A stretch of 64,000 bases of DNA from a virus (taxonomy: Duplodnaviria; Caudoviricetes), in the IMG/VR virus record IMGVR_UViG_3300028591_000071; one strand, given 5' to 3'. A model generated the notes under the pieces. The model saw only the letters and a list, made by a program, of their open reading frames with translations, did no database searches and was not told the origin of the DNA. Below, piece by piece: positions 2,565 to 64,000 of this stretch. Position 1 is the stretch's first letter. Every line of letters starts with the position of its first letter. The translations under genes were made by a program, and so were the position numbers.

Positions 2565-3008
2565 TTATTTAAATGATTCCCGAAGTTGTTTCTTTGTCAT
2601 AACAGTTCCTTCTACTCTCATTTTCTTTAATCTCGCTTTTTCTATGTCTTTCTTTGAATAAGACTTTGTTTCGGATATTCCATCACCTGATATTTCAACA
2701 TCACCGCCAGTTCCTGTTGCTGCCGGGTTCAATTGATTCTGCATCGCCCTTTCAATTGTGTCACCCTTTCCGACTTCAACGTGCTGTGTCAATTTGGAAT
2801 CGTCCGACCCGTTTTGTGAATTCGGGTTTGATATGTGTATAACAGGGTCTCCGAGTTTGCTTGCCTGATTGATGTCTGCCCTGTTCTGTGTAACGGTATT
2901 TACCATTCCTGCTATGGTATTTGCCGTTGACTGGAGCCCGACATTCACATTGTTCTCCTCATTTAAACAACGGTCTAACTGCTTTGTATTAATTACAATC
3001 CTTTTCAT
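2565..3008 (-). CDS. Hypothetical head-associated protein
   Basis: N-terminus MKRIVINTKQLDRCLNEE resembles the shared leader; lies in the head operon. Confidence 0.55.
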   Translation of the reverse strand: MKRIVINTKQLDRCLNEENNVNVGLQSTANTIAGMVNTVTQNRADINQASKLGDPVIHISNPNSQNGSDDSKLTQHVEVGKGDTIERAMQNQLNPAATGTGGDVEISGDGISETKSYSKKDIEKARLKKMRVEGTVMTKKQLRESFK

Positions 3009-3009
3009 A

Positions 3010-3558: not shown

Positions 3559-3623
3559 AGATGGTGCTTCGTTATTGCTACCGCCTAACTTGAGGACTTT
3601 TCTCTCGTCCTCAAAGTTTTCAG

Positions 3624-5411
3624 TTACTCTTTTTTTTTATTCTCGCCCTCGATAGGGATACCGGCCTTCAATTGGTACATGATGTCCTTGGTAACTGCAT
3701 CAACCAACTGATTGAACGGGTCACCGTCACCAATCTTTGAGCCGAATGGCTCTTCGCTGTGAACGCTCTCGTCGTTCCAGTCTTCACCCCACTGATTCTT
3801 GTCTTCACCCGTTGTAGGGAGTTCCATTGGCTTCTTCCTGTAGCCAGGGTGCTTTCCGAAAACATGGAGTTCATCTTCTGCGAGAATCTTGCTAACAACA
3901 GACTCTACGATGCTGTTCATAATCTTCTGCTTTGCTTCCATCATTGGAGTTGGCTCCATCATGCTGCCGTCACCGCACTCGTCAAGGTCGTCATCGTCTC
4001 CGAGGGTATCCTCGTCTCCGCCGAATTCACCTTCTCTTTCTCCCGAGAGGTCAGCACCGAATTCACCTTCGTCGTCTGCGCCAAGGTCTTCGCCACCATC
4101 AGCGTCGAGTTCATCTTCGCCGCCGTCTGCGAATGACTCTGCGTCACCTTCGAAATCAGGTTCCTCACCTGCGATATCTCCGACAGGTTCCTCTTCGCCA
4201 CCGTCTAATTTTGCACGGAGTGCGTCAAGTTGTGCCTGAAGGTCTTCAATCTGTGCCATAAGGTCAGCATCGTCGTCGCTTTCAACGCCGTCCTCTGCAT
4301 CAAAGTCGTCTTCTGCGTCAAGTTCTGAATCAAAATCGGCAGCGCCGCCATCAACATCCTCAACACCCGCGTCAAGGTCTGTATCTGTTGCAGGGTCTTC
4401 GTCGTCTCCGCCGAAATCCTCTACATCAAAGTCATCTCCGCCTTCTGCAGGAACAGCCTCTGTGTCAACATCGGCCTCTGTATCAACAGGTGCTTCTACA
4501 TCTTCCTCTCCGTCGAGTTCTTCTTCCTCATTTACATTCTTGTTGAATGGGTCGTTGTTATGGTCGGTATCTGCCTCACCAACTCCTGCTGATGAAGGAA
4601 GTCCCTCTGAAGCCCAATCGTTCTCTTCCTCGTTGACCTTCTGCTGTCCATCCATTTCCCAACCGATTTCCTTAGGGTCGCGGCCCTTTCCGATGCCTTC
4701 GGTCCCCCAGTTCTCCGTGTTAGGGTGGAGAGGAGCGTCACCGATGTCTCCGGCCTCTTCCTTGAGCTGGTCTTTTGGATTGCCTTCACCCTGGTCGAAT
4801 GGAGCAACTTTCTTATCAACACCATTGGTCTTTGAACCCTTGTATTCAGGGTCTGCCTTTGTTTCCTTTCCGCCTTCGTCACCCTTCTTGCCTGTCTCGG
4901 CCTCAGGATTCTTGCCGTCGTACATTACAACGTCCCCGTCGCGTGAAGCGCCAATTTCGCTTGACTCTTCCATCAACATTGAAACATTGTACATAATCTG
5001 ACGTTGACGAGCGATTTCGTCGCGCATTGCGTCGGTTGCTTCCTGAAGTACCTGATGTGACCTGAAAGGATTAAGTGATTCGATATTCACTTTCTGGTCA
5101 TGCGCCTCATTGATGGAAGCCATTTTGAGTTCAAACTGCTTGAGGGCGTTTGCGTAACTCTTATATTCATAGTCGCCCTTGTTGCAGAACCCGCCAAGAT
5201 ACTCATAAGCCTCAGCGATAGTCTCCTTGCCCTTAGGAGCAGACTTAATATAATACTTGCTATTCTCCTTGATGATACCGTAAGTAACGCCGTCTGCTGC
5301 TACTGCGCGATGCTCAAGGGTGTGGGTTTTTAGGTTATTGCTCTCATTTAATTCCTTACCATAGGTATAAAGGTCTTTCATTCTTGCGAGAGCTTCGTCA
5401 AAACTTGGCAT
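3624..5411 (-). CDS. Highly acidic prohead core/internal protein
   Basis: 595 aa, D/E-rich, many L/I-x-E sites, ends in KKKE on an A9 run; ATATTTAT motif at 5455-5462. Confidence 0.7.
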   Translation of the reverse strand: MPSFDEALARMKDLYTYGKELNESNNLKTHTLEHRAVAADGVTYGIIKENSKYYIKSAPKGKETIAEAYEYLGGFCNKGDYEYKSYANALKQFELKMASINEAHDQKVNIESLNPFRSHQVLQEATDAMRDEIARQRQIMYNVSMLMEESSEIGASRDGDVVMYDGKNPEAETGKKGDEGGKETKADPEYKGSKTNGVDKKVAPFDQGEGNPKDQLKEEAGDIGDAPLHPNTENWGTEGIGKGRDPKEIGWEMDGQQKVNEEENDWASEGLPSSAGVGEADTDHNNDPFNKNVNEEEELDGEEDVEAPVDTEADVDTEAVPAEGGDDFDVEDFGGDDEDPATDTDLDAGVEDVDGGAADFDSELDAEDDFDAEDGVESDDDADLMAQIEDLQAQLDALRAKLDGGEEEPVGDIAGEEPDFEGDAESFADGGEDELDADGGEDLGADDEGEFGADLSGEREGEFGGDEDTLGDDDDLDECGDGSMMEPTPMMEAKQKIMNSIVESVVSKILAEDELHVFGKHPGYRKKPMELPTTGEDKNQWGEDWNDESVHSEEPFGSKIGDGDPFNQLVDAVTKDIMYQLKAGIPIEGENKKKE

Positions 5412-50533: not shown

Positions 50534-51214
50534 ATGAACAGAAAAGACCTACAGGAAAAGTATAATATCATCGGTAAAAATGATGACATCTACCTTTATA
50601 GAAAGCATGGGGAATATGAAAGGGGGTTCGGATATTGTGGAAACATTTCCCTGAAAAATGGGAAGGCTGTCTTCAACGGAGTTCAGTATCCGACGATAGA
50701 AGCCCTCGACGCCGCTCTCCGCGAATGGGAAAAGACTCTTCCTTGGCCGGTGGACACATATAATCCGATGCTGAGGAAAGGGGCGGTGGTCGAAGACCGT
50801 GTCGTTTGGTACCTCACCGAGAAAATGGGATTCAAGACCGTACATGCCGATTGGTCCGTTCGATATTCAAAGGAGATTGGCATTAACTCATCCATTTCCT
50901 TCAGTGTGGATAGAAATGGGATTGATAGTGATAAAATAACTATCATCTGTCCCTACGGTCCATATACCTTCAGGGAGGAATTCACGGATGCCGAATCGGC
51001 GGTCGCCATGATTTCTTCGTTGGTCAGGCAGCAGGTCTTGCAGATGTCATCGGGGATGGTGGAAGCACTTTCCGTATGTCCCGATGTCGATGTTCCTGAA
51101 ATGGAAGCATATGTAAAATCGAACAAAAACATTTTCGGCATAGAAAAAATCGATTACAAGTCGATGATGATTTCCCTGCTCGAAAACGAACTTAAGAAAC
51201 TGAAAGGAGAATAA
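50534..51214 (+). CDS. Hypothetical protein
   Basis: 226-aa ORF after an AT-rich divergent promoter region. Confidence 0.6.
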   Translation: MNRKDLQEKYNIIGKNDDIYLYRKHGEYERGFGYCGNISLKNGKAVFNGVQYPTIEALDAALREWEKTLPWPVDTYNPMLRKGAVVEDRVVWYLTEKMGFKTVHADWSVRYSKEIGINSSISFSVDRNGIDSDKITIICPYGPYTFREEFTDAESAVAMISSLVRQQVLQMSSGMVEALSVCPDVDVPEMEAYVKSNKNIFGIEKIDYKSMMISLLENELKKLKGE

Positions 51215-51222
51215 AGGAGGAA

Positions 51223-51615
51223 TTGATTATGACAAAAGAAGAACTGAAGACCTTTTTGGGACTGAATGATAAATTCATCGAAGACTGTAACCGTGTTTGT
51301 AACATTTTAAATGGCAGCAAAAAACGCCATGGAGAATGTGAAAATATCTCTTATGCAGACAGATTCAACATCGAAGACAATAGCGTTTGGTGGGAAGGTG
51401 ACGAATATTGGTCATATGGCGGACATGAGAAGCATTGTGGCTATTTCGATATCGAGTTCCTTACAATGTCCGATGATGAACTTCTTGAAATCGTAAAGAA
51501 GGAAAACGAGGAATACGACAGGAAAAAGGAGCAGAAAAAGAAGGAGAGGGAAGAAAGGGAGAAGGCCAAAAGGCTTGCCGAATATGAACGACTCAAAAAA
51601 GAATTTGGACAATGA
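51223..51615 (+). CDS. Hypothetical protein with a charged C-terminal helix
   Basis: RBS AAGGAGG; ends EYERLKKEFG. Confidence 0.6.
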   Translation: MIMTKEELKTFLGLNDKFIEDCNRVCNILNGSKKRHGECENISYADRFNIEDNSVWWEGDEYWSYGGHEKHCGYFDIEFLTMSDDELLEIVKKENEEYDRKKEQKKKEREEREKAKRLAEYERLKKEFGQ

Positions 51616-51766
51616 TTGGATAGTGTGAACAACTACCGGGGTTTAATGTTTACAAATAAAAAACGGAATTATCCCTTTGTGTGTTGTGAATAAGTCAGAA
51701 AAGAACCGCAGTTGGCTTCTATCTTCTGCGGTTTTTCGTTATCTTTGTAGAAACTAAAATACGGTT

Positions 51767-51976
51767 ATGGGGAATAGCATTAAATGCCCAATTTGTAATC
51801 AAATGGTGGCGGTGAGGTCAAATGCAGTAACACCTATTGGGTTTGACCATGAGATTCAGATGGTTGTATCAGATTGTGGCCACTTGTGCGGATGTATAGA
51901 TAATGCATATTACATTAACACAGTTCGCGCCTTAAACAATCTAACCAGGCAGTTGTCAGCTGAGAAGAATCGGTAA
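51767..51976 (+). CDS. IS passenger: small Zn-finger protein
   Basis: CPIC..CGHLC; TATCTTTG box at 51740-51747. Confidence 0.5.
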   Translation: MGNSIKCPICNQMVAVRSNAVTPIGFDHEIQMVVSDCGHLCGCIDNAYYINTVRALNNLTRQLSAEKNR

Positions 51977-52544
51977 TACGATTTTTCTTTAAGAAATCGT
52001 TTTGTATTTCTATATCTTGGTCTGACATATTGTTAGGCCATACTTCTCCTTTGTTATCAACAACGGTTTTCTTATAAACCTTTACTCCGTTGTCAGCAGA
52101 TGTTTCAAGTACCCTTCTAATACATTCTTTAACAATCATTCTTAAATCAGATTCTGAAAGTGTGACTGTTTTTCTTTCACAAAGCGGAATTGGGGAATTG
52201 TGGTAATCTCCTTCATAGAGAGCATCTTTTACATTGAAAACATATCCACCTTTTCGTGTTTTCTTGATAACGCCAGCGAAATACCAATGACGGTATTTTG
52301 TTACCAACCACTTGTGCGCTTCCCACGGATTATAAGATGAACCCCTGACATCAGTTTCGTATGTGACTTGTTGCCCGTGAAAGGACGCCACAGTCACAGC
52401 CTCTGACGATAATTGTGTTCGGAGAATTGCTCTTGCTCTTGGGGAACGAATCCTCTTTGCCCTATTCTTGTAGAAATGGGCATATTTCTGCGCTATTAGT
52501 GTATTGATAGCACCATTGGGAGGAAAGTTAATCGTTACGAGCAT
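51915..52544 (-). CDS. IS passenger carrying the phage targeting-like motif
   Basis: VTLSESDLRMIVKECIRRVLE. Confidence 0.6.
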   Translation of the reverse strand: MLVTINFPPNGAINTLIAQKYAHFYKNRAKRIRSPRARAILRTQLSSEAVTVASFHGQQVTYETDVRGSSYNPWEAHKWLVTKYRHWYFAGVIKKTRKGGYVFNVKDALYEGDYHNSPIPLCERKTVTLSESDLRMIVKECIRRVLETSADNGVKVYKKTVVDNKGEVWPNNMSDQDIEIQNDFLKKNRITDSSQLTTAWLDCLRRELC

Positions 52545-52696
52545 TCATCATCAATTCTATCAGCAAGCTTATTGAACTCTGATAAAACTGACTTGCGAAC
52601 TTCCTCGGTTGACAGAATACCATTCTCTTCCTCTTCAGTTAACAACTCTGCATTCCTTAACGCTTCCTCTTTCAGTATTTGTTCTTCAAGAATCAT
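52535..52696 (-). CDS. IS passenger: small acidic protein (53 aa)
   Basis: MILEEQILKEEALRNAELLTEEEENG..; overlaps the next ATG. Confidence 0.55.
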   Translation of the reverse strand: MILEEQILKEEALRNAELLTEEEENGILSTEEVRKSVLSEFNKLADRIDDECS

Positions 52697-52775
52697 ATTC
52701 AATTACAGTTTTATCAAATATACCAAAAATAGCTGGTTTTTACAACTATAAATAGTTTGAAAATCACAAACATCC

Positions 52776-53717
52776 CTATGCTGCAACGGAAAGTTTCACG
52801 AGATTTGCAAATCCGTCCTCAACCTTGCGGTGGTTCATACGGAAGCAGAACTCATCCATATAAGTCTGCATATGCTTAACCGATACATGGTGGTAGATTC
52901 CGTAGACACCCCTCTTGACGATTGCCCAAAACGATTCAATACCGTTGGTGTGCTTTCCGTCACCCTTGGAGAACTCAACCTCATGGTTCACCATGATACG
53001 AATGAAATTCTTCGTATTCTCAACCCTGCCTTCATCAATCACATTATAGCCACTATATTGGTCAGTCATAACAGTAGTACCTTCCTTGCAAGCATCGTTA
53101 AGTACCTTCAACAACTGTTTGCCCGTCAGTTTCTGCCCATTGGCATTTGCAGTAGCCACAACACAATGTACCCTGCCACTATTCCTTTCTTTAACACCAA
53201 TCACAGGTGTTTTGGAGGATGAACCCCTGCCACGCTTATTGAACTTCTCATTGGTTTCCCTTTCAAAGTGAACATTCTCCTTGCGAGGTTTGCCACCCAC
53301 ATAGGTTTCATCCACTTCAACAATGGCTTCAAAGCAATCCTTGTATTCCTCCTTGCCCATAATCTCACGGATAAGATGAAGCATACGCCATGCTCCCTTA
53401 TAGGATTTCATACCAAGTTCCCTCTGCAACTGACAAGCGGAGATACCCTTCTTGGCAACCATAACGAGGTTGATGGCGTAGAGCCACATACGGATGTCAA
53501 GATGGGTGTTTTCAAAGATGGTTCCCTTCAGTACGGAGAAATGGGATTTGCAGTTGTTGCAGTACAAATCCTTACCATTGTTGGCACTGTCACGGTAGAT
53601 GTTGTGAACACAACCGCAGAACGGACAGACATAAGGACCGTTGTACTTAACCTTGATGATGAAGTCAATGGCCGACTTCTCCGTGGGGAAACGCTTATGG
53701 AAATCAAAAATAGTCAT
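52776..53717 (-). CDS. IS1595-family DDE transposase
   Basis: CPFC..CNNC Zn ribbon; EVDETYVGG, TDQYSGY, VNH, HTNGIESFW. Confidence 0.93.
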   Translation of the reverse strand: MTIFDFHKRFPTEKSAIDFIIKVKYNGPYVCPFCGCVHNIYRDSANNGKDLYCNNCKSHFSVLKGTIFENTHLDIRMWLYAINLVMVAKKGISACQLQRELGMKSYKGAWRMLHLIREIMGKEEYKDCFEAIVEVDETYVGGKPRKENVHFERETNEKFNKRGRGSSSKTPVIGVKERNSGRVHCVVATANANGQKLTGKQLLKVLNDACKEGTTVMTDQYSGYNVIDEGRVENTKNFIRIMVNHEVEFSKGDGKHTNGIESFWAIVKRGVYGIYHHVSVKHMQTYMDEFCFRMNHRKVEDGFANLVKLSVAA

Positions 53718-54088
53718 AGTTCAAGTCCTTTAACCTAAATCTATGACTATATACCCTAAAAGTCCAGAATTCTTACAACACTAAAAGGGATAATTCCGAA
53801 TATTTGTTGAAAGTGCTGAAAGAATCTGTCATATCCCGAGTATGAGTAACTATGAAACTCCCGTTAAAAGTAGCCTCATGATAACACTCGACACTTTTCC
53901 GACTTTTTACGTCGAAAAGTGAAACTTTCTGTCGGGTGGCGCGTATATACTCATGCCTTCTGATTGGTAAAGGGTGCCTTTCAGTCGTAGAGTAGCCGGA
54001 CACGGTCCGGTGACGCCAACCGAGCTGCGGAATCAGCCGCGGTGGATCATTACCCGCTAGTATCAATAGAAAACCAAAACTATCTGCA

Positions 54089-54334
54089 ATGACGACAAAC
54101 ATCGCTGTAGCCGCGCAGATTGCGCGCCCCACTATCCCTTTTGTTCTCAAGAGCGTCCTTCCTGCCGAGACGGAAAGCCGTCTTGACCGAATCTGCTGCG
54201 GAGCTCCCGTGGCCGAGGTCTATCGGGACGAGTCCCGCCCCTGGTGGGGGCTTGTTGATAACGACAAGGTCTACGAGACCATCGCCTCTGACCATTTACA
54301 GGCCTATGTCCGACTGATATCCGCCAATGCCTGA
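54089..54334 (+). CDS. Hypothetical protein
   Basis: ORF overlapping the start of the sigma factor gene. Confidence 0.45.
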   Translation: MTTNIAVAAQIARPTIPFVLKSVLPAETESRLDRICCGAPVAEVYRDESRPWWGLVDNDKVYETIASDHLQAYVRLISANA

Positions 54335-54875
54335 GCCTATGGCCAAAACCGGACGGACTTTTGTCTTTGACGCCGAAGCGGCGCTCAAAGCGGCCACCCT
54401 CGCCGTTATCGGCCTCACCTCCGCCTGGAAGTACAAACTTCAGGAATCGGACAGGAAGGAGATAATCGCCGAGGCCGTAGCCAAGGCGTGGAGCCACCGA
54501 GAAACTTATGACGCAGTACGGGCCTCTTTCCAGACCTGGGTCGGACGTATCGCACGAAACACCCTGCTGGATCATATCCGCAGGGCCAAGTCCCGGGAGG
54601 ACTCCCCTGCCCAGGAGAACGACGTAATGGCCGAGAAGTCTCCCGACACGTTAATGATGGAGGACGAAGGACTCGAGGCTATCCAGCGTGCCGTAGAAAG
54701 GCTTCCCGAGGCATATAGAGATATTATTGCCCTCTTATCGGAAGGCAAGCGTCCCCAGGAGATTGCCGAGATCCTGGGATGCTCCCCAAATGCAGCCACC
54801 ATTCGCTGCTGCCGTGCCCGCAAGGCGCTGCGAGAGCTTCTTAAAGGGAACATGCAAGAAAGCGGACGTCAATAG
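54327..54875 (+). CDS. ECF-type RNA polymerase sigma factor
   Basis: Region 2 SFQTWVGRIARNTLLDHIRR; region 4 LPEAYR..EIAEILG..RARKALR. Confidence 0.85.
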   Translation: MPEPMAKTGRTFVFDAEAALKAATLAVIGLTSAWKYKLQESDRKEIIAEAVAKAWSHRETYDAVRASFQTWVGRIARNTLLDHIRRAKSREDSPAQENDVMAEKSPDTLMMEDEGLEAIQRAVERLPEAYRDIIALLSEGKRPQEIAEILGCSPNAATIRCCRARKALRELLKGNMQESGRQ

Positions 54876-54903
54876 GTATAAATAGGAAAACGAACTGACG
54901 AAT

Positions 54904-56610
54904 ATGAGAAGCAAAAGAGAATCCACCATCTTTGAAGAGAAGAACTTCATTTCCGAGGACGAGACGGTCCAGACCCAGGCGGCATGCCTGAACCGCATTT
55001 ATCGTAAGGTAAATTCCACCGGCCTTTCCGCCGATACTATCCAGGAGCTCCGTGACGATATCGATTACGTCGCCGAGCGCTACCATATCGACAACCAAGG
55101 AGCGGTGCTTCTTGCCGCCATCCTCGAGAAGTCGGCCACCAACAACCTCATGGACGACGAGGACCTGGCTATGTATCTCGGCTGCACGAACATCGAGTTC
55201 ATCCGCTATCACAAGAAGCTTCGCGACATGGACAAGGCGGGAATCATTCAGATTGGCGGAGGTCGTGGCGGCCGTCGTTGCTATAGGGTGAGCCCGGAGA
55301 CGCTGAAGGCCGTTGAGAGCAACGGGGAGTTCAGCCCGGTAAAGATGTCCGGACTTACGACGGAGGAGTTCTTCTCCCGTTTCCGCAAGTTCTTCGGATC
55401 GTTCAGAAACGACACTATAGATGCAGATCGGCTTCTGGAAGAGCTGGATAGCCTGGTAAGCTACAACGACCATCTTTCCTTCTGCAAGAAAGCTTTGGAG
55501 TCTGCTCTCTACTCCGATTGCACCAACACGGAGCGCAGGATGTTCTATTACATCTGCCATCGCTACGTAACACACGGGAGCAAATCCGTGGATATCGAGA
55601 CTCTCACGAACTTCACCGAGTTCATGGAGGATGACGAATGCATCAAACGCCGCATCGCCAACGAGCATATGTCCATGCAGCGTAGCGGCCTTGTCAGCTT
55701 TGCCATCGAGGATGGATTCGTGGACACGGGCTCCTTGTCCCTTTCCGACAAGGTAAAGGCAGAGTTCTTCAACGAGGTAGTCTTGACCCCGGAGGAAACC
55801 GTTCGTCATCGCGATATCGTCAGCGCTGAAACCATCCAGGAGAAGGAGCTCTTCTTCAACGAGGCGGAGAGCGCCCAGGTAGCCCGCCTGGAGAACCTCC
55901 TTGACGCCGAGAATTTCAAGGAGGTGCAGAGACGTCTTCTCTCTACAGGAATGCGCAAGGGGTTCAATGCCATCTTCTACGGTGCCCCGGGCACTGGCAA
56001 GACCGCCAGCGTATACGAACTTGCCCGTCGCAGCGGCAGGGACATCTTCCGCGTGGACATGACCAAGCTCAAGAGCAAGTGGGTTGGTGATAGCGAGAAG
56101 GCGGTTCGTGGTGTGTTCAAGATTTACCGGGCTATGTGCAAGGGCAAGGAAAAGGCTCCCATCCTGCTTTTCAACGAGGCGGATGCTGTCTTCACAAAGC
56201 GTATAGAGAACGTCGAGCAGAGCGTCGACCAGATGAACAACGCCATCCAGAACATCATCCTGGAGGAGATGGAAAGCATCGAGGGCATCCTCATCGCCAC
56301 CACCAACCTCCTCTCCAACCTGGACCCTGCCTTCGAGCGCAGGTTCATCTTCAAAGTTGAGTTCAAGATGCCCGAGAAAGACTCCCGTGCCAAGATTTGG
56401 AAGTCCATGATTCCAGGTCTCTCGGATGAGGACGCGGCCGTTCTTGCCGACAAGTATGCCTTCTCCGGCGGCAACATCGAGAACATCGCACGGAAGAGCA
56501 CCGTTGAATATGTCCTTTCCGGGAACGAGCCCACACTTTCGTCCTTGGAGGGTTACTGCCAGGAGGAGATTCTAGACCGTAAGGAGAATCGCAACCGAAT
56601 CGGATTCTAG
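54904..56610 (+). CDS. AAA+ ATPase
   Basis: GAPGTGKT, LLFNEAD, TTN, LDPAFERR, C-terminal RIGF. Confidence 0.85.
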   Translation: MRSKRESTIFEEKNFISEDETVQTQAACLNRIYRKVNSTGLSADTIQELRDDIDYVAERYHIDNQGAVLLAAILEKSATNNLMDDEDLAMYLGCTNIEFIRYHKKLRDMDKAGIIQIGGGRGGRRCYRVSPETLKAVESNGEFSPVKMSGLTTEEFFSRFRKFFGSFRNDTIDADRLLEELDSLVSYNDHLSFCKKALESALYSDCTNTERRMFYYICHRYVTHGSKSVDIETLTNFTEFMEDDECIKRRIANEHMSMQRSGLVSFAIEDGFVDTGSLSLSDKVKAEFFNEVVLTPEETVRHRDIVSAETIQEKELFFNEAESAQVARLENLLDAENFKEVQRRLLSTGMRKGFNAIFYGAPGTGKTASVYELARRSGRDIFRVDMTKLKSKWVGDSEKAVRGVFKIYRAMCKGKEKAPILLFNEADAVFTKRIENVEQSVDQMNNAIQNIILEEMESIEGILIATTNLLSNLDPAFERRFIFKVEFKMPEKDSRAKIWKSMIPGLSDEDAAVLADKYAFSGGNIENIARKSTVEYVLSGNEPTLSSLEGYCQEEILDRKENRNRIGF

Positions 56611-56649
56611 GCGAAAGAATCCTCATTACAACTTGTATATAATACCACT

Positions 56650-57729
56650 ATGGCAAATATCAACGTTAATACAACCGAGCTGATCCAGCTCCTCGACATT
56701 ACTCCCGCCGACCACAATCTCATGCTGGTGGGCAAGCACGGTATCGGCAAGTCGGAGATTCTGACAGACTATTTCTCCAAGAAGGACATGCCCGTTGTGG
56801 CGCTCTTCTTGGGCCAGATGAGCGACCCGGGTGACCTCATAGGCATTCCCAACAAGAACGAAGAGACCGGCAAGACGGATTTTATGCCTCCTTACTGGTT
56901 TCCGCTGGATGGCAAGCCCATCGTCCTCTTCCTTGACGAACTGAATCGCGCAAGGCCGGAAATCCTCCAGACCATCATGGACCTGGCGCTTAACCGCAAA
57001 CTTGCCGGACGCAAACTCCCGGAGGGCAGCCGCATCATCAGTGCTGTGAATGCTGGTGACCAGTACCAGCTGACGGATCTTGACCCGGCGCTGGTCAGTC
57101 GTTTCAATATCGTGAACTTCCGTCCTACCGTGCAGGAGTGGTTGCTTTGGGCTCGCAAAGCCGATGTGGATGGCCGTGTCATCGACTTCATCCAGGAGAA
57201 CCAGATTTGGTTGGACAAAGACCCCGATGCGAAGGAAGGTGAAGATACCGGCCTGGACAAAACCCCTGACCGGCGCGGCTGGAAGCGTGTCTCGGATATT
57301 CTCAAGCAATCCGGGGAACTGAGCCCGCTGCTTACCAAGGCAATCTCTGCCGTTGTTGGCCCGAAGGCAGCCAGTGCCTTCGTCAGCAATGTTTCCAGCC
57401 GGAAGATAGTTTCCGGACGTGAGGTGATCCTGGGCTTCCCTAAGGTCAAGGAAAAACTGGACAAGTATGAGCTTCACCAGATCTCGGTGGTCAATGACGG
57501 CATCTACCGATTCCTTGAGGTTGAGAAGGTATCAGCTAAAGACAAGGAAACGGCCAAGAAGAACCTTGAGGACTACTTCTGTTATCTGACAAAGTCCAAG
57601 AAAGAGGCCGCAGCTCACTTTGCCAACCTCTTCGTCCAAAAGACGTACCCTAACGCCGTGGCGTTCATCGCAAGGGAGTGTCAGGTCCTGACTATGATGT
57701 TCATCTCCTACGTGAAAGGAATCAAGTAA
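56650..57729 (+). CDS. MoxR-like AAA+ ATPase
   Basis: GKHGIGKS, LFLDELNRA, DLDPALVSRF. Confidence 0.85.
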   Translation: MANINVNTTELIQLLDITPADHNLMLVGKHGIGKSEILTDYFSKKDMPVVALFLGQMSDPGDLIGIPNKNEETGKTDFMPPYWFPLDGKPIVLFLDELNRARPEILQTIMDLALNRKLAGRKLPEGSRIISAVNAGDQYQLTDLDPALVSRFNIVNFRPTVQEWLLWARKADVDGRVIDFIQENQIWLDKDPDAKEGEDTGLDKTPDRRGWKRVSDILKQSGELSPLLTKAISAVVGPKAASAFVSNVSSRKIVSGREVILGFPKVKEKLDKYELHQISVVNDGIYRFLEVEKVSAKDKETAKKNLEDYFCYLTKSKKEAAAHFANLFVQKTYPNAVAFIARECQVLTMMFISYVKGIK

Positions 57730-58914
57730 ATGAGGGATCGCATTACAACTATCCTGGAGCACTGGTTCATACAAGAGCCAGCGCTTTTCCAGGTTCTCTG
57801 TACCCACGAGCTTGTATCCAACACGCTGATGGAGTGTCCTGTCAGGAGCGGCAAGAGGCGCGTCGAGTATAATCCCGAGTATCTCCTCGAGATGACTGAC
57901 CAGGGACTGGAAGAGGCTCTCCGCACCGAGGCCGTGCGCATTCTGCTCAAGCATCCTTACGAGCGGAAGCCGGACGGATGCAGTCAGCAGGCTATCGCCA
58001 TAGGGTCCAATATCGTAGTAGGAGACAACTACAAGTATTCCGCCTTCAAGATCGACAAGCCGGCGGACTACGATCTGCCTGCCGGAATGGCCTATGAATG
58101 GTACTCCAGAAAGATTCAATCCATGCTGCCTCCGGGCGCCGGGGGTAACGGTGGGGAAGATGGAGATGACAACCAGAAGCCGGGACAAGGAACCGGGGAA
58201 GGGCGAAATGGTAGTCTGGATGACCGGTTTGAAAGAACATCGGACAAGAATCAGGACCTTTCCGAACTCTGGGACGAGGACGATCTGACGGTCGCCATGA
58301 TTAACGGAGTGATTGAAGGCTGCACATCCTGGGGCTCGCTTGCCGGTGCCTTCGCTGAGCAGCTCAAGGCTTCCACTAAGGCCAAGATTAATTGGCGTAA
58401 TGTCTTCAGCGGCTTCAGGGCGAGCATTCTATCTTCCAAGCGCAAGCTTACCCGTATGCGTCCGAACCGTCGCACTGGGTTTGAGAACATGGGCTCTATC
58501 CGTCGTTTCGATACCAAGCTGCTGGTGGCGGTGGACGTGAGCGGATCCATCTCCAGTGAAAGCCTAAGTTACTTCTACGGCGTTATCAATAGTGCTTTCC
58601 GTTACGGCTTCGAGTCCATCGATGTCATACAATTCGATTGTGGCGTGCGCGTGGTTCAGAGTCTCAAGAAGGTGATGCGTGAGGTGATCGCCATCGGCCG
58701 TGGCGGGACCAGTTTCCAGGAACCCATCGAGTATGCTCACGAGAATGACTACGATGGCCTGCTGATCCTGACTGATGGCTATGCTCCGGAGCCGATAATC
58801 CCTAACAATATGCGCTGCAAGATCATCTGGGTGTGCCAGGACAAGAACTGTTATGAGGCCCACCATCACTGGATGGAGAAATCCGGACGTGTCTGTACAA
58901 TTGAACTGCGATGA
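57730..58914 (+). CDS. vWA-domain partner of MoxR (DUF2201-like)
   Basis: MIDAS DVSGS..GGT..LTDG. Confidence 0.8.
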   Translation: MRDRITTILEHWFIQEPALFQVLCTHELVSNTLMECPVRSGKRRVEYNPEYLLEMTDQGLEEALRTEAVRILLKHPYERKPDGCSQQAIAIGSNIVVGDNYKYSAFKIDKPADYDLPAGMAYEWYSRKIQSMLPPGAGGNGGEDGDDNQKPGQGTGEGRNGSLDDRFERTSDKNQDLSELWDEDDLTVAMINGVIEGCTSWGSLAGAFAEQLKASTKAKINWRNVFSGFRASILSSKRKLTRMRPNRRTGFENMGSIRRFDTKLLVAVDVSGSISSESLSYFYGVINSAFRYGFESIDVIQFDCGVRVVQSLKKVMREVIAIGRGGTSFQEPIEYAHENDYDGLLILTDGYAPEPIIPNNMRCKIIWVCQDKNCYEAHHHWMEKSGRVCTIELR

Positions 58915-59465
58915 ATGGAAAGAAAATACAGGAAATGACCGAGGAGGAAGTCCTCAATCACGTGGCTACGGCTATTCATGACTATCTGATGCGAATTCGT
59001 CCGCAGCACGGCGAATTCGTTCTGGAGGATTGCATGGCCAGACAGGTCAGTGAGTTGAAGATGCTGTTCCGCTGGAGTCGCGGGCTGGGAAGGAGGGATT
59101 CCTTGAGTCCCCAGGATGTTCAGGAGCTTGACATTACCATCAATCATTTCCTGCCTCAGATGCAGGAGCGGGCTCGTGCCGTGCAACTGCATTATACTAA
59201 AGAGCAAACCCTGTGGAAGATCAAAGGGACTTCGGCAGAAGCGCTCATCAAGAAGGCTTTTCAGGATGTGGGAATGAAAGCAGTCGTAGAGTGCCAGAGG
59301 TATCGAGCTAAAGTAATTATCGACCTTGGCGGGCGCACACTTCGTATCTATGTGGGATTCAAGGCCCTTGAGCAGGAGGACACTCTGCCCAATGTGACCC
59401 GGGCGGTTCTGGACTTGAAGGATGCCGCGTGCCGGATTGGTGGTGATATTAAACTTGGAAGATAG
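58911..59465 (+). CDS. Hypothetical protein
   Basis: Coupled to the vWA gene; MTEEEVLN segment resembles the next gene. Confidence 0.55.
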   Translation: MNGKKIQEMTEEEVLNHVATAIHDYLMRIRPQHGEFVLEDCMARQVSELKMLFRWSRGLGRRDSLSPQDVQELDITINHFLPQMQERARAVQLHYTKEQTLWKIKGTSAEALIKKAFQDVGMKAVVECQRYRAKVIIDLGGRTLRIYVGFKALEQEDTLPNVTRAVLDLKDAACRIGGDIKLGR

Positions 59466-59466
59466 T

Positions 59467-60054
59467 ATGTTCAGATTCTTGAGAAGACCGTTCCCTATGA
59501 CTGATGAGGAGGTAATCAATCAGGCTCTGAAGGCGGTCAATGAATACGCAAAACAGCATAAAGGAAGCGATTTTGACATCGACGAAAGTGTCAAGTGCGC
59601 CGTCAAGGCTGTTGAGCCCGTATGGAGAAGTGTAAGATATCCCGGACGTATTCTAAAGCCGTCACAGGCTTTGGAACTCAAGGAGATTACCGGCCGGGTA
59701 AAACCGCAGCTGGAACAGCGAGCCCGGGCTCTTGCTTATGAGTGCATGAAAAAGCAGAAAATCGAATCGATTAAACTGACGAGCTATGAAGCACAGATTA
59801 CCTCCGGACTTAGGGCGAGGGGCTATATGTTTCATTATGACTGGCAGAAAAGCAAGGTCGTGGTCACTATCAAAATCAGCGATACGCTTGCATGCACGCA
59901 GGAAATTAAGTACTCTGACATTAAACGGGGACTTCTCCCCGGCATTATAGCTGATGTGGCAGAGGCGGTGGATCTGCTGATTGGCAAAAACCTGAAGGTG
60001 AGTGTTTGGAAGATGTCAAATGATTGGAAAAGATGGGTAACATGGAGCTCTTAG
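59467..60054 (+). CDS. Hypothetical protein
   Basis: MTDEEVIN..RARA.. similarity to the previous gene. Confidence 0.55.
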   Translation: MFRFLRRPFPMTDEEVINQALKAVNEYAKQHKGSDFDIDESVKCAVKAVEPVWRSVRYPGRILKPSQALELKEITGRVKPQLEQRARALAYECMKKQKIESIKLTSYEAQITSGLRARGYMFHYDWQKSKVVVTIKISDTLACTQEIKYSDIKRGLLPGIIADVAEAVDLLIGKNLKVSVWKMSNDWKRWVTWSS

Positions 60055-60827
60055 ATTTCAAATCTATTACGGCGGAAGCCGTTAAGGAAATCAGCAGTAT
60101 TCCTCTGGAACGACCGGGCGGCTTCTTCAACAGGCGTCAGGTCAAGGTTGATATTTCTCCGGAAACACTTCGAGAGATGCTTCTAAGAAAGGTCTGGGGA
60201 AAAGGAGTAGGGCTGTTAAATACTCAGGAAGCGAAAGCTGAGCCTCTCGTTGCAGAAAAGGCTTTATCGGAACTCATGAAGAGGGGGGCCGTCAAAGACA
60301 AGATTATCTATAAGAAGGATTCGTTCCGCCTGAAACTTGAGAATAGCCAGTACCGGGCATATACATTCGGCGTATCAGGGGCGGTTTACGCCTGCCCGTG
60401 GCCATCAGAGAAACGATATGAGATTCTGATGTCCGGAACCATGTTCGCGGATTTCATCCTTCAGTTCGATGCAGAGATTCCGGAAATGGTCTCTCGCATC
60501 CCGGAGATTATTGAGGTCCTCAAGATGAGGGAGTTGGAGGAAAGGAAGCGAAGGATGGAGAATGAGTTGAAAGAACAAGTCCTTCGGTCCCTCATAGAAC
60601 AATACCTGAAACCCATTGGACTTTCCGTACGCTATAAACTCGATGAAGGAGACATGGTCTCGATGGATATCTCTCAAACCCTCACCGCGCATTTGGAAAT
60701 GCCTCTGGCCCAGATGATGGACAAACTGAAAGATGCCGATGCCTTTAAAGCGTTACTACAGGCAGAGGAAGAACCCGGGATTATTATAGACGACGAGGAC
60801 GACCTCGAGAATATGCTTATTCCTTAA
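60042..60827 (+). CDS. Hypothetical protein
   Basis: ORF in the same operon. Confidence 0.55.
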   Translation: MELLDFKSITAEAVKEISSIPLERPGGFFNRRQVKVDISPETLREMLLRKVWGKGVGLLNTQEAKAEPLVAEKALSELMKRGAVKDKIIYKKDSFRLKLENSQYRAYTFGVSGAVYACPWPSEKRYEILMSGTMFADFILQFDAEIPEMVSRIPEIIEVLKMRELEERKRRMENELKEQVLRSLIEQYLKPIGLSVRYKLDEGDMVSMDISQTLTAHLEMPLAQMMDKLKDADAFKALLQAEEEPGIIIDDEDDLENMLIP

Positions 60828-60886
60828 TTCCGTGTAAGAATATATCCGGTCTTCGGTATAAGTAGACGATAACACAAACGGACACT

Positions 60887-61087
60887 ATGAAGAACGAAGA
60901 CCAATTCCCCACAGACAAGCTGGTGCAGAATACCATTTCTGCCTTCAGGAACGGATACATTGGAGACGAACAGGCCATGTTTGCCATTGACTTTGCGGCC
61001 AAGCTGGGCGATACAGATGCTCAGGCACTGCTCGATAAGTGCAAGGAAATCGGTGTAGCAGAGGCGTTTAACTCAATCGGCAAGTAG
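60887..61087 (+). CDS. Hypothetical protein
   Basis: Short ORF in co-oriented run. Confidence 0.45.
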   Translation: MKNEDQFPTDKLVQNTISAFRNGYIGDEQAMFAIDFAAKLGDTDAQALLDKCKEIGVAEAFNSIGK

Positions 61088-61090
61088 TCT

Positions 61091-61585
61091 ATGTCGATGT
61101 GTCTCCAGATGATTCAGAAGCCTCCGGTGGTCTTCACGAAGTACGACCCGGCAAAGGTCATTAGCCACTCGGACCTTGTTTTGGCGCTTAACTCACGCAG
61201 AAGCGATGCTATCTCCTGGCTCTGGCTAAGCTATGGACGTGCCGTGCTGGATGATGTCAATCCTTGTATGGAAGCAAACGAAGGAGCTGCAGCAACCATC
61301 GCTTTTACATCCTGCTACAAGAGCCTCTCAAAAATGGAGGTTAACCAAATGCCTGGTTCCAACTATGAGCTGAAGGTCGGAGATACGAGCCTATATCTGT
61401 CTGAGACGGACGAGGGAGACGTATTCCTCTATTTCTTCTCTCCGGAGAAGTCTTTCAGCCGCAGGGAGGAGTGCAGAATCGATCTTACCGATTTCGGAAG
61501 CGATGCGGCCGCATACTTCATAGCGACAGTATTTGAATCATATAAACCCGTAGTGCGATACTTTGATACGAACAAATACGAATAA
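61091..61585 (+). CDS. Hypothetical protein
   Basis: ORF in co-oriented run. Confidence 0.5.
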   Translation: MSMCLQMIQKPPVVFTKYDPAKVISHSDLVLALNSRRSDAISWLWLSYGRAVLDDVNPCMEANEGAAATIAFTSCYKSLSKMEVNQMPGSNYELKVGDTSLYLSETDEGDVFLYFFSPEKSFSRREECRIDLTDFGSDAAAYFIATVFESYKPVVRYFDTNKYE

Positions 61586-61768
61586 CCCGTCAGCTTAACA
61601 GAACCATTAACCAGGGATACAAAACGCTCCAATGGCGAAACCTACTACTGCAGCGAGCCTACATCCAATGTCGGGAAAGTAGGCCAGAAACGATGGAACA
61701 ACTGCGTTGTGAAGCACATAGATAAGGTTAAGTGACAAAAAATGATTAAATTTGAATTTATCATCTCA

Positions 61769-62074
61769 ATGGACAAAGCAAAACGAACAATGAAACCTAA
61801 AAAGAAACAGAAGAAACTCCGGATTACGGAGAGGGATTTCCTCCTGGCCAACCGAAGGGCGGCGAGGATCGAGGAAATCGAAGCGCATGGCCGGCCGGTT
61901 TCATTCCGGGGGGCTATCCACAAGTCCAAGAAGGTCTACAATCGCAAAGCACTGAAAAGGCAGGCATCTGATGATGACCTGCCTTTATCATTGACGTCTG
62001 TCTCTCCTTCCGCTCGGGTCACGGATGACGATTTCGTTCAGGAACGCATCCAGATCTCCCTGGAACTCCGATAA
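61769..62074 (+). CDS. ArfA-like alternative ribosome-rescue factor candidate
   Basis: HGRPVSFRGAIHKSKKVYNRK; TAAATTTG -7 box at 61747-61754; internal hairpin at 61956-61986 before the stop. Confidence 0.55.
   Translation: MDKAKRTMKPKKKQKKLRITERDFLLANRRAARIEEIEAHGRPVSFRGAIHKSKKVYNRKALKRQASDDDLPLSLTSVSPSARVTDDDFVQERIQISLELR
61956..61986. terminator. Hairpin/terminator inside the ArfA-like ORF and at the end of the convergent gene
   Basis: AAAGGCAGG-CATC-TGAT-GATG-A-CCTGCCTTT. Confidence 0.65.
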
Positions 62075-62944
62075 GTCATAGAGGACAGGAGTCAGTTGGT
62101 GGCAGACGCTGATAGCCACATACCTACGTCCAGTCAACGGGAAAACCCATACCATCTTATCCGGGTTATTATGGACCCGCAGCGGCTCTCCGAACCGATT
62201 CTTCAGGGCATTGACGGAGTGATAGCCGCAGCAGTCCGCACCGATAGTCTCCAGGTCACGCAGTTTCTGCGCTCCATCGATATGCCAGGCATCACCTAGG
62301 CAGAGCCATTCCGGAACGCATTCACGGTACTTTCGCAGTGTCCGGTGGAACGGGGCCCCGACACCCGTGAAGTTGGTCCAGTTGCCTGCGAATCCCCAGC
62401 ACTGGATGAAGCAGAGCATCTTCGGGGCAAGACCCCGGCTGCAGTAGAGCTGCTGGAACGTAGCGAGTCCCTCGCCGCAGACGAACAGCAAAGAGAACCG
62501 CTCGGGACCATGTTCCTCGCCTCGGTCGGCATTACGCTCGAACACGACCCAATGGGCGAAATGGGCAGGACCGTCCTTTGTTCCAAGGAAGGAATCCCAG
62601 TAGTGGGGACTGGCCATGGGCTCCGGACGAGCCTCGGGTGAAACCATCTCCAGATGCCAGTCGGCCGGGATGTACTCCTCCCGGCGGAGGCTGCGGTGGC
62701 CAAGTACATGATAGCCCAGCACCGTCCTCGTGTCACGGATGTATTCCACCTCCGACACGTCGAAATCGCAGTACACGAAGCTATTGATGCCCAGGCTCCG
62801 CCAAAGGGTGTTGCACAAACGGATGGGCCGTCCGTCGGTACGGCTGGCCGGGTAATAGAGAGAGTCTTTCAGCAGGTCGTCCATTAGGACGGAGCCGCGA
62901 GCGATGCGGTCGGGAGTAAGGTCGTTCAGTCTCATAGCAACCAT
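61988..62944 (-). CDS. Hypothetical protein
   Basis: SLYYPAS.DG.P..FVYCD..RFSLLF..EG.ATF..LY pattern. Confidence 0.6.
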   Translation of the reverse strand: MVAMRLNDLTPDRIARGSVLMDDLLKDSLYYPASRTDGRPIRLCNTLWRSLGINSFVYCDFDVSEVEYIRDTRTVLGYHVLGHRSLRREEYIPADWHLEMVSPEARPEPMASPHYWDSFLGTKDGPAHFAHWVVFERNADRGEEHGPERFSLLFVCGEGLATFQQLYCSRGLAPKMLCFIQCWGFAGNWTNFTGVGAPFHRTLRKYRECVPEWLCLGDAWHIDGAQKLRDLETIGADCCGYHSVNALKNRFGEPLRVHNNPDKMVWVFPLTGRRYVAISVCHQLTPVLYDLSEFQGDLDAFLNEIVIRDPSGRRDRRQ

Positions 62945-62998
62945 ATATACTCCCCACTCATGTCTTTCTTACACACATCCCGTCCCTACTCAGACCGT

Positions 62999-63481
62999 TC
63001 ACTGCCCCATGGCAAGATCAATGATACCTTGAGGGATGACCGGGGTGTAGTCGAAGTCACCCGGGCTTCCCTGTTCCATCACATCCCCGTACAACGCCTC
63101 GATGCTGGCTACCTTCTCGGCTTCGCTCAATTTGTTGAAGTTCTTGATGGTACGGCGACGCTGCCCTTCCGGGATCTCGAAATAGCCGCAAAGATGCCCC
63201 TCAATAAGCCAGTGCTTGTAGTTGGCATAGCTCGCGGCATCGTACGACGCATAATCAAGTGCCTGGTAGATCTCCGGGCACTTCTCTTTGAGGCCGAGTT
63301 TCTCCACGTCGGTCTCACCTCCATTCTCCTTGATCAGAGCGACGAGCTGCTCCACCTGGTTATCCTCCAGCGACACGCACCCCTCTCCTTCGGCATACTC
63401 GCCCACGCCGTTGCAGTGATAACCCAGACAAATCTCAATCGTGAAATCGAATTTTTTCATATCATAACAAGTTAAATCCAA
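62999..63481 (-). CDS. Hypothetical protein
   Basis: Co-oriented ORF. Confidence 0.5.
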   Translation of the reverse strand: MDLTCYDMKKFDFTIEICLGYHCNGVGEYAEGEGCVSLEDNQVEQLVALIKENGGETDVEKLGLKEKCPEIYQALDYASYDAASYANYKHWLIEGHLCGYFEIPEGQRRRTIKNFNKLSEAEKVASIEALYGDVMEQGSPGDFDYTPVIPQGIIDLAMGQ

Positions 63482-64000
63482 ATATTTCCATCGGAGATAG
63501 TAACGGGAAACCGTCTCAAGATCTCCATACCGACAACGCCGTCAACACCGATAACGGAAAGCATCATCTGCAATGAACCGGGAAGATGTCCTGCCTTCAT
63601 CGTAAAATCATTCCCGGCGAAAGAGGCGGGGAACTCGAATATAGGTGTTTCAAAGGTATCTCCATGAACCAACGGATTGAAGTCTGTCACCTGACCAATC
63701 GGATTGAGTCCTCCCGTAAATGACCCGGATACGTACGATGTCGGCGCACCCGTGTCTAGTATGATTTTGGCGGGCTTTCCGGTCAGAAACATATCCACAG
63801 ACATATAGCCCATCCCCATCCTGGAAGGAAGGCGGGTCATGCCGTCAGTCGAAGGATTGAGAGAAAGTTTCCCTCCGGGAATGTCAATCTTCATCCCTAA
63901 CCTGGAGATGATATCCATCCCCAACAATCCAGAAACATTCACGCCAACCTTCTCAGCTATGTATGAAGAATCCACCCCCATTAAGGAATCAGGTACTGGG
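63472..64000 (-). CDS. Retropepsin-like aspartyl protease, 5' end probably outside the window
   Basis: GLLGMD, ILDTGAP, GVVGMEIL. Confidence 0.75.
   Translation of the reverse strand, partial: PVPDSLMGVDSSYIAEKVGVNVSGLLGMDIISRLGMKIDIPGGKLSLNPSTDGMTRLPSRMGMGYMSVDMFLTGKPAKIILDTGAPTSYVSGSFTGGLNPIGQVTDFNPLVHGDTFETPIFEFPASFAGNDFTMKAGHLPGSLQMMLSVIGVDGVVGMEILRRFPVTISDGNIWI

Follow-up and report, generated by a model that had tools for sequence, protein, structure and literature searches.

A shared IS1595-family element at a probable assembly mis-join between a rumen jumbo phage and Bacteroidales island DNA

Insertion sequences of the IS26, IS1 and Tn5/Tn10 type give rise to cointegrates and composite transposons, in which a single IS with non-matching flanks joins two replicons or bounds captured DNA. 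The IS1595 family is not known to form cointegrates. Members of this family (Siguier, Gagnevin and Chandler 2009), such as MTnSag1 and tISCpe8 (PMC5704250), have a DDE_Tnp_IS1595 transposase, short terminal inverted repeats, an 8-bp target duplication and extra passenger genes, and are thought to move by replicative excision that yields a circular copy (PMC5704250). Repeats shared between genomes are also a source of chimeric contigs, typically where the repeat exceeds the insert size and the two genomes have similar depth; the signs are an abrupt switch in composition at the repeat edge, a short terminal foreign segment and reciprocal contigs that stop inside the repeat (bioRxiv 10.64898/2026.10.15.759294). 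Interspecies chimeras are common in short-read assemblies, with at least one such contig in 20.5% of near-complete metaSPAdes MAGs and in 69.4% of MEGAHIT MAGs (bioRxiv 10.64898/2026.10.15.759294).

The locus described here, in a 64,000-nt stretch of jumbo phage sequence (the window), shares the features of both. Its IS has the transposase, the inverted ends and a passenger gene of the IS1595 family, together with an 8-bp duplication for a bacterial copy of the element, and differs from the known family in that near-identical copies are common to huge rumen phages and Bacteroidales chromosomes. The junction carries these signs of a chimera at a shared repeat, and the putative mis-join differs from the usual case in that its two sides come from a jumbo phage and from the lineage that probably hosts it, which makes the shared repeat biologically informative in itself.

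An IS1595-family element at a compositional boundary

The element (Table 1) is bounded by perfect 15-nt inverted ends, CGGAATTATCCCTTT, at 51664-51678 and 53784-53798. Its transposase matches PF12762 at 2.6e-30 (105.9 bits; cut-off 27). The Zn-ribbon (PF12760) scores 19.7 bits, under the Pfam cut-off of 25.4 and in this respect different from known IS1595 members, with CxxC pairs visible in the alignment. The transposase shares 95% identity with an annotated transposase of a Candidatus Cryptobacteroides MAG and was seen on 134 contigs; the exact 209-aa passenger protein, for which no Pfam or PADLOC family was matched, was found on 11. Many rumen jumbo phages carry this IS family, as does Bacteroidales DNA. 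A megablast search with the IS found nothing in phage and plasmid collections, and the element is almost absent from 201 Cryptobacteroides-family MAGs, as expected for a repeat and hence not counted as evidence. The 8-bp sequences on either side of the element, ATAAAAAA (51656-51663) and AATATTTG (53799-53806), do not form a duplication, as the first-pass annotation had observed. Among complete elements of the same TIR family in IMG/VR phage loci, four of seven have a perfect 8-bp duplication and three have none that is perfect; a full copy in GC-rich DNA (L111; 99% identical) also lacks one.

Table 1 Features around the junction (window coordinates).
Feature	Position	Strand	Basis or remark
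Last phage gene (130 aa, 51223-51615) and 48-nt phage flank X ending ATAAAAAA	51223..51663	+	ORF list, sequence
IS1595-family element with passenger genes	51664..53798	-	2135 bp; inverted ends and transposase
Passenger ORF of the IS, 209 aa	51915..52544	-	ORF list
IS1595 transposase, 313 aa	52776..53717	-	DDE_Tnp_IS1595 (PF12762)
Right-hand copy of 8-bp target-site duplication, bacterial IS insertion	53799..53806		AATATTTG
Near-invariant non-coding leader, upstream of 81-aa ORF and ECF sigma gene	53920..54088	+	Alignment of window, L001 and L005
81-aa ORF and ECF-type sigma factor (182 aa; 54327-54875)	54089..54875	+	Sigma70_r2, r4_2
AAA+ ATPase, 568 aa	54904..56610	+	PF00004 at 1.3e-24
MoxR-type AAA_5 ATPase, 359 aa	56650..57729	+	Pfam
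VWA/DUF2201 metallopeptidase-like protein, 394 aa	57730..58914	+	Pfam
Six ORFs without family	58911-59465, 59422-60054, 60024-60827, 61091-61585, 61988-62944 (-), 62960-63475		ORF list
ORF cut by contig end, 175 aa present, weak aspartyl-protease-like motif	63472..64000	-	Sub-threshold matches

Composition and taxonomy both change exactly at the right edge of the repeat (53798). In 1-kb windows, GC content is 0.35-0.45 across 5-53 kb and 0.47-0.58 from 54 kb on (summary figures, 0.37-0.43 left versus 0.47-0.58 right of the IS right end), and in 200-bp steps it moves from 0.34 at 53.7 kb to 0.56-0.59 at 54.0-54.6 kb. The tetranucleotide correlation with the left part drops from 0.91-0.97 left of the IS to 0.17-0.42 right of it, and that with the right part climbs to 0.89-0.94 past the IS. 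The GC-richer DNA right of the TIR, remarked on in the first reading of the sequence, is thus a step in the GC and tetranucleotide profiles located at that very base. The same reading had seen no late motifs on the right, which is nearly so: the left part has 13 copies of the late-type motif CTATTTAT (0.25 per kb), and the right part a single one, at 54878. On the other side of the element, the composition of 51223-51663 is phage-like.

The contig is 306,240 bp long and ends at window base 64000, so that the GC-rich foreign DNA forms its last 10,202 bp. There is no return to phage sequence after 53798, and no IS end within 53.8-64.0 kb or at the contig end. Complete related jumbo phages measure 355-363 kb, from which it follows that part of the phage is absent from this contig.

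Bacterial-type genes right of the element

The right part matches a sheep-rumen Bacteroidales MAG contig at 98% protein and 93% DNA identity, and has matches in 55 of 201 Cryptobacteroides-family genomes. Its exact proteins occur on this contig alone, or on one contig more. The ECF sigma factor, AAA and MoxR-VWA proteins named in the first-pass annotation were recovered with Pfam, and their cellular look agrees with the taxonomy, the closest relatives lying in rumen Bacteroidales near Candidatus Cryptobacteroides. The AAA+ ATPase is 98% identical to its counterpart on the sheep-rumen MAG contig and 82% to that of Candidatus Cryptobacteroides, and a 96% identical variant occurs on 29 contigs, which reach 81 kb in length. 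With an IS-free Bacteroidales MAG contig, L001, the 81-aa ORF and the sigma factor share 90-91% protein identity. Upstream, almost every column of the leader is identical in the window, L001 and a third sequence, L005, the adjoining coding DNA being 77-93% identical. A hairpin at 53891-53921 stays paired despite changes in both arms. The fold z-score is -2.46. Rfam and tRNA scans of 51-64 kb, leader included, gave no match.

As in known MoxR (AAA_5) plus VWA pairs, a MoxR-type ATPase lies adjacent to a VWA-like DUF2201 protein whose N-terminal domain is metallopeptidase-like; unlike those pairs, this one is linked to another AAA+ ATPase and an ECF-type sigma factor, and the intact locus also has a sigma-70 paralogue. 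The MoxR-VWA pair is syntenic in four MAG contigs (L002, L003, L125 and L126), and in L125 (50.7 kb) and L126 (180.6 kb) the order is kept in full, with the sigma-70 paralogue divergent from AAA-MoxR-VWA. In L126 the module is flanked by miaA, PPIase and tauE on one side and by recQ, a kpsF-like gene, arginase and FKBP on the other. The right part is Bacteroidales chromosomal-island DNA.

PADLOC returned a generic AAA match to IetA and TRIP13 and nothing more on the right part. The six ORFs of 58911-63475 had no significant Pfam, PHROG or PADLOC match, and homologues of several of them adjoin the same module in MAG contigs. The terminal ORF (63472-63999), earlier called a retropepsin, is present and is 76% identical to contig C84 of G002, but its aspartyl-protease matches are sub-threshold (E 0.026-0.077). 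In one IMG/VR contig (L011/L115; 35.9 kb), MuA/MuB-like genes and a repressor adjoin this module. A Mu-like transposable prophage was dropped as a general description of the right part, the MuA-like genes in MAGs being on other contigs.

Two contexts of the element and the origin of the junction

The partner of the window's right flank was found in a contig of a sheep-rumen metagenome (L110; Ga0247611_10057688), in which 3840 nt of GC-rich DNA end in GCA AATATTTG and the contig then runs for 119 nt of sequence identical to the IS left end before it stops. In the window, the IS right end is followed by AATATTTG TTGAAAG. Pairing the two gives a perfect 8-bp duplication, with AATATTTG on both sides, and L001 holds the uninterrupted site, GTG AAAATTTG TTGAAGG, its homology to the window beginning exactly at 53798. 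Duplication and empty site together indicate that a copy of the IS inserted by ordinary transposition in Bacteroidales DNA, and that what lies to the left of the right flank's insertion site is bacterial-type DNA rather than phage. This bacterial copy lies between the sigma-70 paralogue and the AAA/MoxR/VWA operon.

A second contig from the same metagenome (L107; 89,684 nt) terminates 97 nt into an identical IS right end. Its flank is phage-like, the tetranucleotide correlation being 0.79 with the phage part against 0.21 with the right part, and has a 30-38-nt motif common to related jumbo phages; alternative genetic codes failed to extend the ORFs of L107. The flank starts AAAATGAT rather than ATAAAAAA, and is therefore not a clean duplication partner of the phage left flank. 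An IS right end with ATAAAAAA next to it, as expected for the right flank of the phage itself, was not found in 28 metagenome loci and 75 viral loci, nor did exact searches of IMG/VR for both window junctions and the phage flank return anything. Two complete relatives, G204 (near 81 kb) and G207 (near 355 kb), have homologues of the gene at 50534-51214, in a hypervariable region; the L107 flank had no tblastx match to the two 16-kb regions around them.

The IS is thus seen in at least two genomic contexts: X-IS (the window and a Logan contig of sequencing run X1), Y-IS (L110) and IS-Z (L107). The X1 contig covers 49675-51693, reaching 30 nt into the IS, which places phage DNA next to an IS left end in the sample. 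Two contigs that end inside the IS, one host-like and one phage-like, mean that all four ends are explained by a phage-IS-phage molecule plus a host-IS-host molecule, and L110 and L107 are the reciprocal ends expected from a mis-join by the assembler. The search for another IS copy with reciprocal flanks had been proposed as a check, and its outcome was positive for the chimeric option. Of the three origins first offered for the junction, chimeric assembly is accordingly favoured, and a cointegrate and the capture of a host island are less parsimonious.

We consider the junction to be probably an assembly chimera, in which two DNA molecules were mis-joined through near-identical copies of a 2.1-kb IS1595-family element. 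The jumbo phage has one of these copies, with left flank X ending ATAAAAAA, and the other lies in an accessory island on a rumen Bacteroidales chromosome, with the 8-bp duplication AATATTTG, between the sigma-70 paralogue (flank Y) and the ECF-sigma/AAA/MoxR/VWA operon (flank Y'). Short reads are unable to span 2.1 kb of identical sequence, and the assembler would have come into the IS from the phage side and exited on the bacterial side, producing X-IS-Y' and running on for 10.2 kb to the contig end. We infer that the joining occurred in the assembler rather than in a cell. The window contig presumably comes from the same assembly (Ga0247611) as L110 and L107; a Y-IS end is present there, and no IS-Y' end was found in searchable form.

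In run X1 the IS has a depth of ~31, the phage ~17 and the right part 16-19, figures that come from Logan contigs and so are per contig and summed over strains; fine-scale depth arguments were set aside for this reason. No Logan contig can bridge the 2.1-kb repeat. The IS depth equals the sum of two single copies, and with phage and right part so alike in depth a wrong choice of path would be easy. The X1 contigs break at the IS left boundary (51664). They differ from the window at several positions in 54.6-55.4 kb, and X1 may be other than the exact source of the window. Further observations sit less comfortably with a mis-join: the near-equal X1 depths (17 versus 16-19) are also predicted by physical linkage, and no phage right flank starting ATAAAAAA was found, yet the three family elements of seven noted above do not have a perfect duplication either.

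A real recombinant is possible but improbable. The phage IS and the island IS would have recombined in an infected Bacteroidales cell, or a composite transposon would have entered the phage, and a sub-population or the whole phage population would truly have at least 10 kb of host island. Both routes predict exactly what is seen, X-IS-Y' with the old duplication half AATATTTG retained; near-equal phage and right-part depths, with the IS at about double, would follow; and the substrates exist, given the spread of the IS family in rumen jumbo phages and Bacteroidales DNA. The L111 copy without a duplication suggests in addition that rearrangement at the IS may be frequent. A recombinant, however, needs a third molecule beyond the two that already explain all four ends, and the foreign DNA lies at the very end of the contig, with neither a return to phage sequence nor an IS end. 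The right part also occurs at 99-100% identity in other animals without adjoining phage DNA (in bovine runs X4 and X6, identity ~99-100% and depth near 0 over phage 50.0-51.3 kb), and the near-uniqueness of its exact proteins counts against a recombinant too. That at least 10 kb of host island (ECF sigma, AAA+ ATPase, MoxR-VWA) truly belongs to the genome of a virulent rumen jumbo phage, taken up by recombination or composite transposition by way of an IS1595 element shared with Cryptobacteroides-like Bacteroidales, is in our estimate unlikely.

A replicative cointegrate is very unlikely. Transposition of the island IS into the phage through a Shapiro-type intermediate would fuse the replicons with an IS at each junction, predicting X-ATAAAAAA/IS/AATATTTG-Y', as in the window, and Y-AATATTTG/IS/ATAAAAAA-X', of which L110 fits the left half. 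The IS right end followed by ATAAAAAA is the junction absent from the 28 metagenome and 75 viral loci, and a virulent phage genome of ~300 kb fused to a bacterial chromosome would be unpackageable. Compared with IS26-, IS1- and Tn5/Tn10-type events, neither a second copy of the IS nor an outer duplication can be seen, the contig ending first. Replicative excision to a circular copy, as thought to be used by IS1595-type elements, does not pass through cointegrates (PMC5704250). Finally, an old native block of the phage genome with the IS landed at its edge is barely credible: MoxR and VWA match the phage families phrog_1297 and phrog_1314 and the 35.9-kb IMG/VR contig has the module beside MuA/MuB-like genes, but the duplication partner and empty site and the housekeeping neighbours in the 180-kb L126 contradict it, the composition is wholly unlike phage, and related complete jumbo phages yielded no close relative of the AAA gene.

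The shared element as a host lead

The first-pass annotation held that the junction, whatever its origin, would point to the host, and this stands: the right-hand genes and the transposase are closest to rumen Bacteroidales near Candidatus Cryptobacteroides, a lineage at which the sequence evidence hints under an artefact and a real join alike. Whichever explanation is right, a near-identical IS1595 element is present both in a jumbo phage and in a rumen Bacteroidales chromosomal island, which shows that the IS1595 family here moves between huge phages and hosts. Should the junction be an artefact, the phage genome needs to be trimmed by its last 10.2 kb and regarded as incomplete at that end, and the two AAA-type ATPases, the VWA protein and the ECF sigma factor should not be counted as phage-encoded. 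If the capture were real, a huge phage would have been caught in the act of taking up host genes through an IS. The near-identical IS in phage and island is a concrete lead to the host of an uncultured huge phage, and a testable one.

Composition and position of the junction

The right end of an IS1595-family element (Table) coincides with an abrupt change in composition. GC content per 1-kb window is 0.35–0.45 over 5–53 kb and 0.47–0.58 from 54 kb to the end. Segments of 5 kb up to 50–55 kb correlate in tetranucleotide usage with the left 51.6 kb at 0.91–0.97; beyond this the correlation is 0.17–0.42, and 0.89–0.94 with the right part. The switch lies at 53798. The junction that the first-pass annotation placed at the IS end is confirmed as an observation, as are its GC-richer right side and the lack of a duplication around the element (ATAAAAAA on the left, AATATTTG on the right). 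A GC-rich patch (0.49–0.53) also lies within the phage part, at 3001–5000, over a 595-aa ORF with no Pfam or PHROG family.

An exact look-up assigned the window proteins to a single JGI/IMG contig, 306,240 bp long, that ends at window base 64000, making this its final window. The foreign-looking DNA is the terminal 10,202 bp only, and phage composition is not regained before the contig end. The remainder, judged by its left-hand genes, is a rumen jumbo phage. As complete relatives measure 354,809 and 363,317 bp, the ~296 kb of phage sequence here probably falls short of a whole genome.

Features of the window and of related loci
Feature	Location	Description
IS element	51664–53798	2135 bp; perfect 15-nt inverted ends
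IS transposase		313 aa; IS1595 DDE domain, 2.6e-30
Putative leader region	window 53891–54088; L001:310–520; L005:2330–2545	~170 nt, non-coding
Right-part genes, in order		ECF-type sigma, AAA+ ATPase, MoxR-type ATPase, VWA/DUF2201 protein
Downstream of VWA/DUF2201 gene		ORFs without family assignment; last ORF truncated
Block in MAG contigs	L126:8273–14737 (G153 contig C8); L125:1923–7580	second sigma-70 divergent from AAA+/MoxR/VWA-DUF2201 operon
Module in 3300042816_000186	L115:1636–5256; L011	AAA/MoxR/VWA, NADAR and ART genes
Full-length IS copy at another site	L111:6135–8273; L098:1–369	99% identical
Repeated phage motif	L107:3604–3641	38 nt
ORF in GC-rich patch	3624–5411	595 aa

A bacterial insertion site and an accessory island

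The IS ends were searched in the metagenome collection and the flanks compared. One contig, L110 (Ga0247611_10057688, 3959 nt), comprises a GC-rich stretch of 3840 nt with the terminus ...GCA AATATTTG and, after it, 119 nt that match the IS left end exactly; the contig stops there, inside the element. In the window, the IS right end is followed by AATATTTG TTGAAAG..., and L001, an IS-free contig of a sheep-rumen Bacteroidales MAG, reads ...GTG AAAATTTG TTGAAGG..., being homologous to the window from 53798 and to L110 up to the same octamer. An empty site with an 8-bp duplication is the classical signature of transposition. The L110 flank encodes a sigma-70 paralogue, a 282-aa protein, an ART/DUF3990-like protein and a NADAR protein, so that joining it to the right part restores the sigma-70/AAA neighbourhood of the MAGs. 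Duplication, empty site and restored gene order together indicate that the IS copy whose right end lies in the window had its insertion site in bacterial DNA. In the window this bacterial right flank is connected, across the IS, to phage DNA on the left.

The cellular genes announced by the first-pass annotation are present, except that its retropepsin (the last ORF) has only a sub-threshold resemblance to aspartyl proteases. Their taxonomy leads to rumen Bacteroidales. For the AAA+ protein, identity is 98% to the copy on L001 (3.2 kb), 82% to that of a ruminal Candidatus Cryptobacteroides MAG and 73% to that of another rumen Bacteroidales MAG, and the DNA of the right part matches 55 of the 201 genomes sampled from the family of the Candidatus Cryptobacteroides MAG. 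In MAG contigs of 50.7 kb and 180.6 kb, the AAA-MoxR-VWA genes adjoin a sigma-70 gene divergently. In the larger, the block is inserted between tauE and recQ, with miaA and cyclophilin genes on the tauE side and kpsF-like, arginase-family and FKBP genes on the recQ side. In genomes with the block, its sigma-70 is additional, as a second sigma-70 gene (55–58% identity) occurs in five of five genomes searched, and the block is accessory in these chromosomes. These identities, family matches, gene order and the extra sigma-70 together mark the right part as an island of accessory DNA in Bacteroidales chromosomes, belonging neither to a phage nor to the core genome. The window version adds an ECF-type sigma gene and an 81-aa ORF.

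Upstream of these two additions, the non-coding stretch is almost invariant across three loci whose coding DNA is only 77–93% identical. It is preceded by a hairpin whose pairing is maintained through changes on both sides. With a fold z-score of −2.46 and no Rfam match, it may serve the island as a leader or regulatory RNA; in the window copy a 33-nt GC hairpin segment, present in L001 and L005, is missing. The reported absence of late motifs on the right nearly holds: a single CTATTTAT, at 54878 just upstream of the AAA+ gene start, is probably chance. An IMG/VR contig, 3300042816_000186 (35.9 kb), carries the same module with MuA-like and MuB-like transposition genes, a CI-type repressor, SbcCD and a methyltransferase, and may be a transposable prophage that acquired it; MuA/MuB-like genes were not adjacent to the module in the MAGs examined.

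Four ends of the element and the origin of the junction

A second contig of the metagenome that yielded L110, L107 (Ga0247611_10000397, 89,684 nt), ends 97 nt into an identical IS right end. Its flank has a GC content of 0.44, and its tetranucleotide usage correlates with the phage part at 0.79 and with the right part at 0.21. L107 also carries a motif found (30–38 nt shared, 95–100% identity) at several places in two related complete jumbo phages of 355–363 kb from the rumen, including position 270–299 of the phage with terminal repeats; no copy of the motif was found in the window. The second IS copy with reciprocal flanks that the first-pass annotation proposed to look for was thus found, as L110 (host-like) and L107 (phage-like).

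The element therefore has phage and host partners on the left, and host and phage-like partners on the right. By duplication and gene order the two host flanks belong together, and the simplest second molecule is phage–IS–phage-like flank. The arrangement in the window, phage–IS–host, would then be a crossed path, and L110 and L107 the two stumps left behind. The phage-like flank starts AAAATGAT rather than ATAAAAAA, a mismatch softened by the seven complete phage-borne relatives of the element: four have an 8-bp duplication and three lack a clean one, and their insertion sites are A/T-rich. We infer that the window's contig comes from Ga0247611, where the host left end is present and no searchable IS–host right end was found; this would be explained if that end lies in the window's own contig.

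Evidence from sequencing runs consists of assembled contigs, none able to bridge the 2.1-kb repeat. The best match, sheep run X1 (0.97 of sampled words), covers the phage part in contigs at depth 15–20, with a break precisely at position 51664; the left half of the IS has a depth of 31.4 and the stretch 58.6–62.1 kb one of 16–19. Such values would be expected if two single-copy molecules, similar in depth, shared the IS; they also fit physical linkage and are not decisive; at such depths a coverage-guided choice of path could easily go wrong. In two bovine runs the right part is present at ~99–100% identity with depth near zero over phage 50.0–51.3 kb, so the island exists without the window junction; in one of them an IS relative has a different right flank.

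Of the three options first offered, chimeric assembly is best supported, and the junction probably arose during assembly, through two copies of the IS. Interspecies chimeras are frequent in short-read assemblies, with one or more such contigs in 20.5% of near-complete metaSPAdes MAGs and in 69.4% of MEGAHIT MAGs (bioRxiv 10.64898/2026.10.15.759294). A real recombinant could have formed if the IS copies of phage and host recombined homologously during infection, or through composite transposition. The local sequence expected is the same, but a further molecule is required, as is a second junction, which was not seen, and we consider this origin unlikely. A replicative cointegrate is highly improbable, as the IS1595 family is thought to move via a replicatively excised circular copy (PMC5704250) and packaging of such a fusion would not be possible. 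A native phage origin of the GC-rich block, contradicted by the empty site and chromosomal context, is scarcely credible.

The element as a pointer to the host

Full-length and reduced forms of the element occur elsewhere. The copy in L111, within a related GC-rich element, has a right flank matching the L110 NADAR gene (92%), and its flanks (CTTCTTAT and AAGAGTAT) again show no duplication, reflecting either another mis-join or frequent rearrangement at the IS. In contigs of X1 (depth 14.7) and of a further run, X2 (depth 4.4), position 52858 is followed immediately by 53757; both samples thus also contain a derivative of the IS that has lost the transposase but retains its passenger genes and both termini.

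One X1 contig, at double depth and showing no differences, covers the left 1.2 kb of the IS; over this stretch the copies in phage and host are therefore essentially the same, implying that exchange was recent. A Candidatus Cryptobacteroides MAG encodes a protein, annotated as 'IS1595 family transposase', that shares 95% identity with the transposase of the window; this protein sequence occurs on 134 contigs, the longest of 475 kb, and IS relatives with the same ends are dispersed over many rumen phage contigs. The suggestion that the junction would point to the host stands through the IS, which itself appears to link the phage to a host lineage near Cryptobacteroides. In practice, the contig should be trimmed at 53798 and the right-hand genes not credited to the phage; the Cryptobacteroides-like host lead is worth following.
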